Shown here: piece after piece, positions 1,252 through 54,105 of the stretch | How the letters are laid out: each line of letters opens with the position of its first letter | How positions within the stretch are numbered: the stretch's first letter is position 1 | Assembly (NCBI GenBank): GCA_964016885.1 | Contig: OZ024765.1 | Location: forward strand, 22,630,001-22,694,000 | Length of the DNA stretch: 64,000 nt | Source of the DNA: Eledone cirrhosa | Lineage: Eukaryota | Direction: 5' to 3' | The notes under the pieces: generated by a model | The model's input: the letters and a program-made list of their open reading frames with translations, nothing else | Database searches by the model: none | Told to the model about the DNA's origin: nothing | Made by a program: the position numbers and the translations under genes

Positions 1252-1308
1252 GTTTTTATTAGCCGACAATGTTTCGTCCTATTAAGGACTCATCAGGGCA
1301 ATCAAAAC
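1252..1308 (-). ncRNA. Minimal type-I hammerhead ribozyme
   Basis: Minus strand GTTTTGATTGCC-CTGATGA-GTCCT/TAAT/AGGAC-GAAAC-ATT-GTC-GGCTAATAAAAAC: full core, stems I-III, GUC cleavage site (between 1265 and 1264). Confidence 0.85.
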
Positions 1309-1736
1309 AACAAGAAGTAATATCGGCAGATACAAGCCGGAAACTCTGAAGAATATGGAGTGTGCATATACTAAAGTCTTACAAAAATATATAATAATAA
1401 AAATGAAAATAAAAATAAAAATAATAAAAATATATAATAATAAGAATAACTAAGGATGTAGATAACATTAAGAACCATATTACAAATATAGTCCAAAGCA
1501 ACTAACCTAAATCTAAACAAAGGTGGTTATATAGAGCAGGAATTATATATAACACAATGCAATAAACATAATACATTATAATAATATCCAGTATTCTAAT
1601 CCTTATATATATATATATATATATATATATATATATATATATATATGCAAAAGTTTTATTTAAATTGTTGGGATACAACAAGCAAATATTTTTATAACTG
1701 ATATAAAGCACTCAACAAGTATTTGGAGTAGATATA

Positions 1737-2059
1737 CGATATTAATAAATGGAAACTATATTTATAAAACCATATTTATTTCATTATATATATTTCAAGG
1801 ATACCAAGTTACATTATGGTGTGCCTTCATCAGACAAAATACAATATATAACAGTTATATAAATAGACATTGACGTACCCCTTTAAAAATTGACCGTTGT
1901 TTTTGGAGGCCATCAGGGGTACGTCAATGTCTATTTATAAAACTGTTATATATTGTATTTTGTCTGATGAAGGCATACCATAATGTAACTTGGTATCCTT
2001 GAAATATATATAATGAAATAAATATGGTTTTATAAATATAGTTTCCATTTATTAATATC
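1737..2059. mobile_element. Fold-back (about 145-bp arms) Penelope-like non-autonomous element with a hammerhead motif in each arm
   Basis: Arms 1737-1881 and 1916-2059 are reverse complements; CTGATGA at 1964, stem II AGGCATACCA/TGGTATCCTT, GAAA at 2001; a third, minus-strand copy at 2228-2269. Confidence 0.75.
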
Positions 2060-2754
2060 ATATATATATATATATGTAGATGTAGAGGTTATATTTAATT
2101 TGTTGGGATACAAGCTAAATATGTTTATAACTAATATAAAGCACTCAACAAATTATTGGATTAAATATACAATATATTAACAAATGGAAACTATATTTAT
2201 AAAACCATATTTATTTCATTATACATATTTCAAGGGCTACCAGAGCAAACTATGGTGCGCTTTCATCAGATAAAATATAATATAGGTTAGTTTTATAAAT
2301 AAATATTGACATACCCTTAAAAAATGCAACCATTCTGGTTGGAATCTCCTGGATATATATAAATATATATATATATATATATCTATATATATATATATAA
2401 TATATATCTATATATATATATATATAATATATATATATATATATAATATATATATATATACAGAGAGAGAGAGAGAATTTGAAGTTTGAAAGCCACAACA
2501 ATGTGAAATGAATGACTAAATCATCGTCACCGTCATATTTTATCATAATCACCATCATCATCATCACTACCACCACCACCATTATCATCATCAACACCAT
2601 CACCACCAGCATCTTCACCACCATCACCACCATTATCATCTTCACCACCACCACCGCCGCCAACACCACCACCACCACCATCATCACCATCACCACTACC
2701 ACATTTATTTCTATGTAACTCATGTATTTACTAAATATATAAATATATTGTTAT

Positions 2755-3012
2755 AAATATATTGTTATACTTGGGGAGGGTCATATTGTTGTAATAATAT
2801 TGCCAGAAATAATAACAGAACACACTCACTGTTTGGTTGGTTTTCACTTCTGTATCTTTTATATCTCCACAGTTAATTCATTCGGTCCTCAATGATAAAC
2901 ATGTGTTCTGTTATTATTTCTGGCAATATTATTACAACAATATGACCCTCCCCAAGTATAACAATATTTGTTTTGACACACGATTTCATATCAAAAACCT
3001 CGCAAAACAAAT
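2755..3012. mobile_element. Fold-back copy of a Penelope-associated terminal repeat
   Basis: 2757-2825 is inverted against 2900-2969; the same sequence flanks the GIY-YIG relic at 9097-10583 and recurs at 30481-30575. Confidence 0.65.
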
Positions 3013-50295: not shown

Positions 50296-51875
50296 TGCAA
50301 CACCTCCTCCCCCACCAACACCTCCTCCCCCTCCAACACCTCCTCCCCCACCAACACATCCTGCCCCCACCAACACCTCCTCCCCCACCAACACCTCCTC
50401 CCCCTCCAACACCTCCTCCTCCTCCTCCAACACCTCCTTCCCATACAACACCTCCTCCCCCTCCAACACATCCTTCCCCCTCCAACATCCCCTCCCCTCC
50501 AAAATATCCTGCCCCCACCAACACCTCCCCCACCAACACCTCCCTCTCCAACACCTCCTCCCCCTCCAACACCCCACTCCAACACCTCCTCCCCCTCCAA
50601 CACCTCCTCCACCTCCAATACCTCCCCCCTCCAACACGTCCGGCCCCTCCAAAACCTCCCCCTCCAACACCTCCACCCCAACACCTCCACCTCCAACACC
50701 TGCTCCCCCTCCAACACCTCCCCCCTCCAACACCGCCCCCATTTCCAACCCTCCTCCCCCTCCACCACCAGTACTTCACCACACCATCATCCTCACCACC
50801 ACTACCACCACACCACCCACACCACCACCACCAACACCATCACCACACCATCAACACCCACACCACCAACACCACCACTCCCCCGCACCCCCACCTCCAC
50901 CACCACCACCACCACCACGTTCTCCACCAACACAACCCCACCACCATCACCACCACCACCACCTCCACCACCACCACCACCATCACCACCACCACCACCA
51001 CCTTCTCCACCAACACAACCCCACCACCACCACCACCACCACCACCTCCACCACCACCACCACCATCACCACCACCACCACCACCTTCTCCACCAACACA
51101 ACCCCACCACCACCACCACCTCCACCAACACAACCCCACCACCATCACCACCCCCACCCCCACCCCCACCACCACCACCACCACCACCACCAACACAACC
51201 CCACCACCACCATCACCACCACCACCATCACCACCACCACCTTCTCCACCAACACAACCCCACCACCACCACCACCACCACCACCAACACAACCCCACCA
51301 CCATCACCATCACCACCACCACCACCACCACCACCTTCTCCACCAACACAACCCCACCACCATCACCACCCTCACCCCCACCACCACCACCACCACCACC
51401 ACCACCACCAACACAACCCCACCACCACCATCACCACCATCACCACCACCACCACCACCAACACAACCCCACCACCACCATCACCACCACCACCATCACC
51501 ACCACCACCACCACCATCACCACCCCCACCACCCCCACCACCACCTCCTCCACCAACACAACCCCACCACCACCACCACCACCATCATCACCACCACCAC
51601 CACCATCATCACCACCACCACCACCATCACCACCACCACCACCACCACCAACACAACCCCACCACCATCACCACCACCATCATCACCACCACCACCACCA
51701 TCACCACCACCACCACCACCATCACCACCACCACCACCACCACCAACACAACCCCACCACCATCACCACCACCATCATCACCACCACCACCACCATCACC
51801 ACCACCACCACCACCATCACCACCACCACCACCACCACCAACACAACGCCACCACCACCACCACCCCCACCACCG
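50296..51875. repeat. C-rich compound (CCT/CCA)n repeat
   Basis: Extreme strand skew; lies wholly in the intron between exons 50238 and 51930. Confidence 0.85.
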
Positions 51876-51929
51876 GCCTTCATCATTTCCCCAGAATTCA
51901 ATGCAGTTTCCTTCCTTTCTATCTTTCAG

Positions 51930-51965
51930 CAGCAGAAGCTGAAGAAGACGAAGACAAAGAACGAG
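51930..51965 (+). CDS. Host gene acidic microexon ([12 protein letters not shown])
   Basis: Strong pyrimidine tract then tcAG, GAG|GTGAAC donor; 36 nt, phase 1-1; tandem CAGCAGCAG acceptors. Confidence 0.72.
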
Positions 51966-53722
51966 GTGAACTTTCTTTTCACTTACTCCTAGATAGACGT
52001 AGACACACATACATGTTTCTACTTACACTCACACACACACACACACACAGACATAGAGTGATACATAACCAAAACTTCAAGACTTATATATATATATATA
52101 TATATATATATATATATATAGGAAAATGTATGAACCCCGACGGCAGAGCTCAAGCTGTTTCGACTCTGATGCGTTATGGTCCATCTGGTTCCTTACCACA
52201 ACTCCGTCGTTATATATATATATATATATATATATATATATATGTATGTATATATATATGTATGTATATATATATATATGTATGTATATATATATGTATG
52301 TATGTATATATATATATGTATGTATATATGTATGTATATATATATATGTCAGGTCACCACTTGGTGCTACTGGTAACATGTATCCCAGTACAACCTGTCT
52401 CATGGTCGGGTCGTTGGCGACTAAACTGGCAACCCCACTAAGGTTTCTTGGTGAGGAGGGTGACTTTGGACATCCTGCAGGACTAAAAACAAAACCTGTC
52501 AAAGGGCAAAGGAGCTCTTAAGAGTCAATGGCCATCCAAAATCACTGGGAGAGATGACCCCTTAGCCTTTGTCAAGGCAGAATTCTAGGAGAAGGAAAAC
52601 TCTGATATAACACCTGCAACCCTGATGGTATCCAATGATGTTGACTTGTTCTTCTTTTTGGTAAATATCATCTTGGTTAAGAGAGTGGGACTGGCTTTGT
52701 GCAGTGCCTTTGCTCACTATAAAAGCTTCACGGCACAGGCATTGCTTTATATCTGGAGATCTCTCTGCACTTGCCGTCACATGGTACCATGGGCCCAGCA
52801 CTATGTGTCAATAATTGTCACAAGTGTAGTGTTTGTACCAGAGTTTTCAAGTCGCTGACTGGACTAAAAAGTCACACTCGTTCAGCGCATCGGTAGGGGT
52901 TCTCCTACATGGATATAAAGTAGTGGCCGTACTCGAAAACGAGTTGGCAGCCACCATATATATATATATGTATGTATATATATATGTATGTATATATATA
53001 TATATGTATATATATATATGTATATATATATGTATATATATATGTATATATATATGTATATATATATATATATATATATATGTATATATATATATGTATA
53101 TATATATATATGTATATATATGTATATATATATATGTATATATATATATATATGTATATATATATATATATATATATGTGTGTATATATATATATGTGTA
53201 TATATATATATATATATATATATATGTATATATATATTATATATATATATATGTATATATATATATTATATATATATATATGTATATATATATATATATA
53301 TATATTATATATATATATATGTATATATATATATAATATATATATATATATATATGTATATATATATATATATATATATATATATATGTATATATATATA
53401 TATATATATATGTATATATATATATATATGTATATATATATATATATGTATATATATATATATATATATATATATATATATATATACATATATATATATA
53501 TATATACATATATATATATATATTTATATATATATATATATATATATATATATATATATATATATATATATATATATATATATATATATATAAAACCAAA
53601 AATGAGTATGGTTTGTTGATTACTCAACGAATGCAATATTACAATAGATTAGAAGCACTCAACAGTGATTTTTCTGGAGTTTTAATATTATTCAAAATGT
53701 TAACAAATGAAAAATATACACA

Positions 53723-54105
53723 TAATCAAAATATATATTTTATTATATATATTTCAAATGTACTGGTGGTGTTTCAGTACGTTTTCATCAGACAAAATAT
53801 ATGATTTGATATATGACATACTGCTACTGTCTTGATTATTCAATTCCAGTATTGGCAGTGATTTATTTCATCAAATCTCACTGCATCCTTTAAAACTTCC
53901 ATGCTTCCTGAGATTCACCAACACTAAGGAAGTTTTAAAGGATGCAGTGAGATTTGATGAAATAAATCACTGCCAATACTGGAATTGAATAATCAAGACA
54001 GTATCAGTATGTCATATATCAAATCATATATTTTGTCTGATGAAAACGTACTGAAACACCACCAGTACCTTTGAAATATATATAATAAAATATATATTTT
54101 GATTA
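53723..54105. mobile_element. Fold-back element (about 178-bp arms) with a hammerhead in each arm
   Basis: Arms 53723-53900 and 53928-54105; CTGATGA(54037)-AAACGTACTG/CAGTACCTTT-GAAA(54073); same family as 1737 and 22423. Confidence 0.8.

Follow-up and report, generated by a model that had tools for sequence, protein, structure and literature searches.

Hammerhead motifs and the predicted gene in the window

The window analysed here is a 64,000-nt stretch of the 3.0-Gb genome assembly of the octopod Eledone cirrhosa (GCA_964016885.1, contig OZ024765.1, positions 22,630,001 to 22,694,000). It carries hammerhead ribozyme motifs, most of which are very probably the pseudo-long terminal repeat (pLTR) ends of 5'-truncated Penelope-like elements (PLEs) lying in (TA)n repeats. 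About 47% of the window is tandem repeat, and 79% is masked once interspersed repeats are added. Six in-frame exons bounded by AG..GT on the forward strand encode a predicted single-pass membrane protein with a transmembrane helix and a tyrosine-rich tail. These predicted exons lie at 5892..5987 (96 nt, the transmembrane helix), 17713..17775 (a basic juxtamembrane segment), 23027..23095, 38434..38478 (45 nt), 50194..50238 (45 nt) and 54824..54937 (a tyrosine-rich cytoplasmic segment). Small phase-1 exons characterize this predicted receptor gene (5892-54937, +) and also locus L042. An upstream partner of the first predicted exon was not located within 40 kb.

A first-pass annotation of the window had listed 16 hammerhead sites and placed them within the introns of one gene. 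This holds for 12 of them, which lie between predicted exons; the other four (1296-2269) are upstream of the first exon found. Eight sites are sense and eight antisense to the predicted gene, a split without bias. The motifs are real: a hammerhead-type motif is present at all 16 sites, each within a hammerhead-bearing repeat family. Forward-strand positions in the annotation mark the first base of the core, while those on the reverse strand were 30-62 nt too low, the corrected core starts being 1296, 1833, 2269, 9379, 13898, 22518, 37828 and 53791. The bare CUGANGA heptamer occurs at chance frequency (29 in the window against 29.0 in shuffles). The structural descriptors by which the annotation had proposed to check the motifs came out in their favour: the strict descriptor gave 9 matches, with none in 100 block-dinucleotide shuffles or for six decoy cores, and the relaxed descriptor gave 11, against a mean of 0.02 and a maximum of 1 in 50 shuffles. 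Another check that it proposed, the Rfam model Hammerhead_1 (RF00163), was borne out at one site of the 16 (1258-1302, 31.7 bits), and that match falls under the gathering score of 34. The remaining 15 sites had no hammerhead match in the Rfam scan (118 matches, mostly microsatellite), and six further loci had no Rfam match at the gathering score.

The annotation had called several sites degenerate, and five of the 16, decayed or atypical, fail the relaxed descriptor. Stem I has only about 2 bp at 9379, as it does in long-ORF (open reading frame) copies of the same family. At 12996 the 5' strand of stem I is lost, and it is kept in homologues with a recognisable core. The core at 13898 reads CCGAAGA, the commonest form among the copies of its family examined, and at 22031 and 27868 the first pair is U.U and stem II is short. 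The repeat or protein families of these five sites each have first-look candidates numbering in the hundreds to thousands. A 17th, decayed copy at 22820 (-) was absent from the earlier list.

Repeat families and their links to Penelope-like proteins

Genome searches for each family returned 83 to 2,743 first-look candidates, 40 of which were scored per family. Within a family the 3' end is fixed and lies in (TA)n, the 5' end varies, and copies frequently have an inverted partner. Ten of the 16 sites are tied at fixed distances to ORFs of PLEs (families A, B, C, D, E, H and N). To judge from their protein motifs and homologues, these ten are 3' pLTR stumps of protein-coding PLEs of the Hydra, Neptune/Nematis-like and Poseidon-like kinds.

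The putative Hydra-clade stumps begin with family E (1211..1587, -; core 1296, predicted GUC cleavage site 1265, short (TA)n end), the site of the Rfam match, which matches at 96-98% both pLTRs of a pLTR-ORF-pLTR copy at L169. Family A forms an inverted pair of a long-ended copy (1646..1910, -; core 1833, tail hairpin 1729-1710) and a short-ended partner (1917..2060, +; core 1964). In other copies of this family the hammerhead lies 232-233 nt 5' of the ATG (three copies) or 1.5-1.9 kb past the stop of an ORF with reverse transcriptase (RT) and GIY-YIG domains (15 copies). The adjoining stump of subfamily A2 (2075..2334, -; long end, core 2269) is 83% similar to A. Family B is likewise a pair (long-ended copy 22325..22581, -, core 22518, tail hairpin 22418-22388; short-ended partner 22588..22743, +, core 22652), and at L172 its Hydra GIY-YIG segment ends 608 nt upstream. 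Family D retains part of its protein: a 3' fragment at 24836..26278 (+) includes a CxCX5C linker and GIY-YIG (24836-25282), a 3' untranslated region (UTR) with an internal inversion, core 26178 and a short end. The last pair, of family C, joins a long-ended copy (53592..53900, -; core 53791, tail hairpin 53680-53655) to a partner (53928..54105, +; core 54037) whose 3' end is broken by another repeat. Family C is joined to ORFs at L195 and L186, and at L195 the 5' pLTR leads into a Hydra ORF.

Two further ORF-linked families appear to belong to other clades. The family N fragment (9098..10392, -) comprises a broken RT end and GIY-YIG (9660-10391), a 3' UTR and core 9379. It matches at 91% the family of about 1100-aa ORFs at L033-L038, and it faces an inverted 5'-truncated partner without hammerhead (10404..10588, +). 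In most of 29 ORF-linked rows the family N hammerhead lies about 235-385 nt after the ORF end. The N ORF at L033:2098-5454 holds a long asparagine-rich insert, as in the rotifer Penelopes described in PMC3846280. The family H stump (45245..45478, +; core 45347, helix III palindrome ACGU) appears to derive from a Penelope/Poseidon-like PLE, with the hammerhead 614-736 nt after a GIY-YIG segment in 7 of 10 loci.

Four more sites, A2 and those of families F, J and K, look Hydra-type without a direct ORF link. Family F has a short-ended copy (37733..37880, -; core 37828) and a long-ended inverted partner with the core deleted (38185..38380, +; tail hairpin 38316); its relative F2 lies 237 nt after a Hydra-type endonuclease (EN) at L181. 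A tail hairpin of the F2 type without hammerhead at 10719 (+) is a stump truncated 3' of the ribozyme. Family J is an inverted pair on both strands (13812..14135) made of a short reverse-strand copy with the CCGAAGA core 13898 and a long forward-strand partner without core (tail hairpin 13983). Family K is represented by a short-ended stump (27820..27981, +; core 27868), the tail hairpin being present in 3 of 3 long copies. The Hydra tail anatomy is found in both J and K.

Several features expected of EN-bearing PLEs were recovered. A single ORF with RT (YxDD) and C-terminal GIY-YIG is recognized by motif in a 743-aa frame at L073 and a 1119-aa frame at L033. pLTRs with a hammerhead lie in partial tandem around an ORF at L078 (period 3951), L169 (period 5073) and L036, and 5' truncation occurs together with an inverted 5'-truncated partner. 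The tail at one end measures about 90-100 nt in Hydra families and about 35-40 nt in family G (described below), compared to 30-40 bp for such elements. Any target-site duplication is masked by the (TA)n repeats. As for the traits of the Hydra clade, RWK and DKT correspond to RIRWR and SDKT/ADKT in A and E, and the N-termini of C and D match A. The CxCX5C linker, an EN lacking CCHH, and CxxC plus CxH near the C-terminus are all found in A, B and E, the linker and EN in D, and insertion favours (TA)n. The Hydra tendency to short length (<3 kb) was not found in A (3.95 kb) or E (5.07 kb including nested repeats). Family N has a CX2-5CxxC linker and two cysteines between GIY and YIG, which fits Neptune and Nematis alike, and family H, for which the EN region at L198 was used, has CxxC between its VY and YIG motifs. 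Set against the clade descriptions in PMC8557442, these motifs suggest that A, B, C, D and E belong to the Hydra clade and N to Neptune/Nematis. The nearest named homologues of the two PLE proteins in the window are from Octopus vulgaris (68%) and Argonauta hians (39%); a PDB sequence search returned nothing significant.

Density of the motifs in the genome

The relaxed descriptor was applied to 89 ten-kb stretches (890 kb) taken at round coordinates from large contigs, a sample that excludes small contigs and is not length-weighted. It returned 66 matches, or 74 per Mb (bootstrap 53-98), which gives an estimated 2.2e5 hammerhead motifs genome-wide (1.6-2.9e5). Controls gave 0 matches in five shuffles of the first 54 stretches, 3 in reversed sequence and 0-2 for seven decoy cores. 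The 11 matches of the window amount to about 2.3-fold the genome mean (resampling P about 0.04), and the idea that the window is an unusual hotspot was largely rejected. A (TA)4 run occurs within 300 nt downstream of 57 of the 66 sampled matches, compared to 29.5% at random, and 19 of the 66 have an intact divergent partner within 3 kb. Allowing a U3-A8 core added 13 sample matches, mostly in recognisable families. Families with this compensated core were seen at L085, L098, L114, L118, L124, L128, L276, L281 and L297, and one of them looks circularly permuted at 260-270 nt. Published counts were obtained with descriptors that differ from ours and so are not like-for-like: axolotl has 126,247 hammerheads (PMC7229834), Xenopus about 9,000 (PMC4209133) and giant squid 235 as counted by Rfam (PMC6962438).

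Architecture of the hammerheads

The core, stems I and II and a palindromic helix III of the dimeric type-I class are all present, and helix III is self-complementary in 51 of the 66 sampled matches. In 27 distinct sequences whose helix III is 8 nt long, both sides vary at 18 of the 21 named pairs, a result reached in none of 500 shuffles, and 89% are paired in the true alignment against 30-50% in slid controls, a figure inflated by the relatedness of the sequences and by their selection for pairing with the descriptor. The fourth pair of stem II (alignment columns 19/58) in the 8-nt-palindrome class is a near-constant C.C or C.U mismatch, unpaired in 24 of 27 sequences, and possibly marks a tertiary or protein contact. 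G10.1-C11.1 occurs in 15 of the 66 sampled matches. Family J mostly carries CCGAAGA (U4 to C), as at 13898 (-) and L228-L241, with related copies at L118 and L288. Minimum free energy folds of monomers seldom yield the hammerhead fold, which is expected for a dimeric class and was given no evidential weight. Since helix III is self-complementary and offers no useful monomer hairpin, cleavage likely needs a tandem partner or a protein, and by analogy with related ribozymes the motifs are likely dimer-dependent and silent as solitary intronic copies. Known PLE hammerheads cleave weakly even as dimers (PMC4209133), and cleavage of the Anolis PLE hammerhead needs the PLE protein (PMC11167929).

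Non-coding retrozyme units

In family G the 3' part of the unit sits upstream of its own hammerhead at a period of about 300-345 nt in 28 of 60 matches examined. Judged by this circular permutation, G is clearly an ORF-less retrozyme unit of about 320 nt. Its fragment at 22009..22199 (+; core 22031) and a second at 22755..22845 (-; decayed core 22820) have the same 5' start and face each other around the family B inverted pair, the whole being nested at 22009-22845. The family I copy (12860..13158, +; core 12996, stem I broken) shows a similar but weak signal (2 of 20 matches examined have its own 3' part upstream, with a period of 320-340 nt) and is probably a retrozyme monomer. A query with the sequence upstream of family I was set aside, as it matched an unrelated common repeat. 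No ORF link was found for G or I among the loci examined. The features of retrozymes that lack long terminal repeats (non-LTR retrozymes), namely an ORF-less 150-450 nt unit, a type-I hammerhead and head-to-tail copies, came together in G alone, two direct copies lying at L316, and were not found in ORF-linked families. In the permutation test families E, N, B, D, K, F, H and C each scored 0, J scored 1 of 39 and A 7 of about 135, and in the tandem-repeat scan of the window no hammerhead lay in a tandem array. Elsewhere in the genome (L093:8630-10000 and L301:1-2500, at about 280.009-280.013 Mb of contig C3) a 311-nt tandem unit, family G-like by eye, has 12 direct hammerheads and one inverted, and appears to be a full retrozyme array.

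These results bear on what the first-pass annotation had made of the motifs. The hammerheads are dense and diverse in the genome, falling into many families at about 74 motifs per Mb, and are nearly invisible to Rfam (1 of 16 sites, sub-threshold). The type-I form shared with PLEs and retrozymes, the many families and the palindromic helix III were also confirmed, save that the palindrome fails in family N. The idea of a population of non-coding retroelements fits G clearly and I weakly and fails for most sites, 10 of the 16 being stumps of ORF-bearing PLEs.

Two 3' ends and a twin hairpin

Hydra-type families end about 80-115 or about 180-200 nt past the core (up to about 260 in K), the two ends being about 90-100 nt apart. 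In full-length copies the interval between them corresponds to the leader between the pLTR end and the ATG. The short end is followed by a hairpin of the form RCUC, upper stem, variable loop, a 2-nt 3'-side bulge (UH) and GAGY, and in full-length leaders each end lies about 5-10 nt before a copy of it. Among 76 long-ended copies, 61 have the hairpin at the short end, and each of the 12 families or subfamilies tested has it; the chance expectation is 1.4%. A second copy lies past the long end in each of the four families with a leader examined (A, C, D and E), as it does in two related leaders; for family B a search with the second-hairpin pattern gave 748 matches against 424 in the control, which carries no weight either way. 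An alignment of 19 sequences has G-C (10) or A-U (9) as the outer pair and C-G (15) or U-A (4) as the first upper pair, and neither pair is broken in any of them. Three lower-stem pairs are invariant in sequence and the upper stem allows G-U. Of 91 such hairpins in the genome sample, 22 come after a hammerhead-like core; reversed sequence gave 0 of 32. Two long copies start after (TA)n right at hairpin 1 or hairpin 2 (L175:6027 and L178:4093), so 5' ends can coincide with the hairpins too.

The hairpin is visible in published coral and sea-cucumber Hydra sequences. Of the six elements in the Hydra consensus file of PMC8557442, inspected by eye, Hydra-1_Ajap has two clean hairpins in its leader, Hydra-2_Ajap and Hydra-2_Amil each have a single one at the 3' end, Hydra-1_Crog and Hydra-1_Obim match in part, and Hydra-1_Amil has none. 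We did not find the twin hairpin described in the literature searched, which did not extend to subscription papers and does not establish its absence from print. The word hairpin has 0 occurrences in the main texts checked, and the main text of PMC8557442 has 0 for hairpin or stem-loop.

Inverted pairs

Of the inverted pairs whose ends could be called, a long end faces a short one in 25, while 8 are short/short and 2 long/long (P=0.005 against independence); this excludes nine pairs with an uncalled end. For M and S the division into long and short is arbitrary, and in N an internal (TA) run had counted as the short end; together these account for the 2 long/long and 4 of the short/short pairs. 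When the tally was repeated for eleven Hydra-type families, it came to 24 long/short, 5 short/short and 0 long/long, with 9 uncalled. In family A the long partner has the shorter 5' extent in 6 of 7 long/short pairs. Three pairs of the window fold with 91-94% of bases paired, and some pair junctions are palindromic. Inverted pairs put long duplexes into introns, and these may be connected with cephalopod A-to-I editing.

Other features of the window

A Helitron Rep/Pif1 helicase remnant spans 31233-35703 (+) in several frames (Pfam Helitron_like_N and PIF1). Just 3' of its ORF, at 36206-36287 (+), is a ribozyme match of HDV-like (hepatitis delta virus) type with 34.8 bits (gathering score 44), with no second copy among the loci examined. 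A telomere-like (AACCCT)n tract occupies 661-1007, and satellite arrays with 41-nt and 70-nt units occupy 45485-50174 and 54979-62183. The 70-nt unit fits the hairpin pattern, probably by chance.

A proposed mechanism and its alternatives

Taken as a whole, we consider it highly probable that the window holds pLTR stumps of PLEs in (TA)n together with a few retrozymes likely mobilised by the same proteins, the ribozymes being likely dimer-dependent. A tandem or pLTR-primed transcript would present the hammerhead, hairpin 1, hairpin 2 and then the ORF. The RT-endonuclease would bind the hairpins, nick (TA)n and begin cDNA about 5-10 nt 5' of either one, which would give the short and the long ends. 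Early termination would then leave mostly stumps of 150-400 nt, in which the hammerhead would always be retained because it lies within about 100-200 nt of the cDNA start. Priming on both target strands, with one cDNA per hairpin, would produce head-to-head long/short pairs. Two hammerheads in one tandem RNA could pair their palindromic helices III and cleave, whereas lone copies would be silent for want of a partner and inverted pairs because they would fold into one long duplex. We lean slightly towards the hairpin-priming steps. The more specific proposal, that a clade-wide twin RNA hairpin is the binding site of the RT-endonuclease and that a protein dimer seated on both copies primes one cDNA from each on opposite (TA)n strands, we regard as an even proposition. 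The priming scheme extends the findings of PMC11167929, in which a Poseidon PLE has two RT starts in vitro that agree with its two genomic ends and a protein predicted to form a dimer.

Several observations weigh against this account. Pfam recognized neither RT nor GIY-YIG in the PLE ORFs or fragments, so that their assignment is based on motifs and homologues. A2 and F are tied to ORFs through relatives only, B is tied at a single locus, none of the loci examined linked J or K to an ORF, and helix III of family N is not self-complementary. The hairpin pattern is missing in 15 of the 76 long-ended copies, and the upper stem of the second hairpin has only 1-2 bp in 5 of 6 examples. The hairpin was picked by eye and then counted, the aligned sequences were chosen for the motif, and copies within a family are not independent. 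It was not found in families N, H, G, I, M, S and U and is therefore specific to the Hydra type. The A pair of the window is itself the exception to the pattern of 5' extents, its long copy reaching further 5' than its short one.

One alternative for the motifs themselves, that they are chance matches in AT-rich DNA or fold-back artefacts of assembly, deserves practically no credence. It could draw on the chance-level count of the heptamer and on the three matches in 890 kb of reversed sequence, but it is refuted by the descriptor matches in excess of shuffles, by stem covariation and by inverted partners that differ by 1-3% and in their 3' ends. The view taken in the first-pass annotation, of a non-coding retrozyme population spreading as small circular RNAs, finds footing in the permuted unit of family G and weakly in family I, in the 311-nt array and in the 16 of 66 sampled matches flagged as retrozyme-like, one of which is probably a false flag because its family is ORF-linked. 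The ties of ten sites to PLE ORFs, for which retrozyme identity is rejected, the permutation test and the lack of tandem arrays around the hammerheads of the window make it improbable for the sites at large. We give still less weight to the suggestion that some sense copies act on the host pre-mRNA by cleaving it, either singly or as dimers between families formed through the common AUAUAUAU palindrome, although the predicted sense strand carries eight of the listed sites, stem I and helix III are compatible among A, B and C, and longer helix III segments occur in G and F. There is no strand bias, the sense copies of A, B and C are locked in inverted duplexes, and the families are young repeats rather than conserved single loci. 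Together with the weak cleavage of dimers (PMC4209133) and the protein requirement in Anolis (PMC11167929), this makes an effect on the host gene unlikely.

The most serious competitor concerns the hairpin. It could act in DNA or after integration as an EN recognition site that resolves an intermediate, with inversions produced by self-priming on an antisense template (PMC3846280) and the tail by EN-mediated resolution (PMC8557442). The D. virilis tail is required for EN recognition, as recounted in PMC11167929, the three invariant lower-stem pairs would suit a DNA motif too, and some pair junctions are palindromic. Against this, the hairpin is strand-specific, has a bulge on its 3' side and tolerates G-U pairs in its upper stem, and the agreement of Poseidon genomic ends with RT starts was obtained on RNA in vitro (PMC11167929). 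We judge this alternative rather doubtful and retain priming from an RNA hairpin as our preferred explanation.

Relation to known systems and significance

Hammerheads of this kind and PLEs in octopuses are already known; what is added here is the twin hairpin and the long/short pairing. A survey of octopus Penelope ribozymes was not found in the literature searched. The elements share with the Hydra-clade PLEs described by Craig et al. 2021 (PMC8557442), which include Hydra-1_Obim of Octopus bimaculoides, the RW[K/R] and DKT motifs, the CxCX5C linker, the absence of CCHH and the C-terminal GIY-YIG, as well as a hammerhead near the 3' end, (TA)n targets, an inverted 5'-truncated partner and a tail at one end. 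They differ from them in their many families and very high copy number, in a unit of about 4-5 kb with a 3' UTR of 0.6-2.3 kb (<3 kb in the published elements) and in a tail of about 90-100 nt, up to about 150 (30-40 in the published elements). With the minimal, dimeric PLE hammerheads (PMC4209133; Lunse et al. 2017, as reviewed in PMC6765202) they have in common the type-I form, the pLTR location, a short palindromic helix III, mostly solitary occurrence, opposite-strand pairs 100-700 bp apart and the U3-A8 core variant. The scarcity of G10.1-C11.1, the C.Y mismatch of stem II and the CCGAAGA core of family J are traits of their own.

Comparison with the Poseidon element PAc of Anolis (Frangieh et al. 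2024, PMC11167929) reveals two genomic 3' ends bounding a tail and AT-rich targets in both. In PAc the hammerhead is dispensable for insertion in vitro, as it may be in the octopod elements. In PAc both starts fall in one AC-rich stem loop inside the ORF, whereas here the 5' leader holds two ends separated by about 90-100 nt, and a separate hairpin copy follows each. Family G, and probably I, share with non-LTR retrozymes (PMC7229834; bioRxiv 10.64898/2026.07.22.740005) an ORF-less unit of about 320 nt, a type-I hammerhead and PLE-style insertion, and differ in that the copies in the window are monomer fragments without arrays.

The motifs are numerous, at about 74 per Mb, and nearly unseen by Rfam. 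If the estimate is true, about 2e5 hammerhead ends would place this octopod genome among the most ribozyme-rich on record. Both PMC8557442 and PMC11167929 present the origin of the PLE tail and of the inverted ends as an open question. With the twin hairpin, a concrete covarying cis-element that has intact natural ORFs adjoining, this question can be put directly to the test in the in vitro assay that already exists. If true, priming by a protein dimer on the two hairpins would account in one step for both the PLE tail and the head-to-head long/short insertions.

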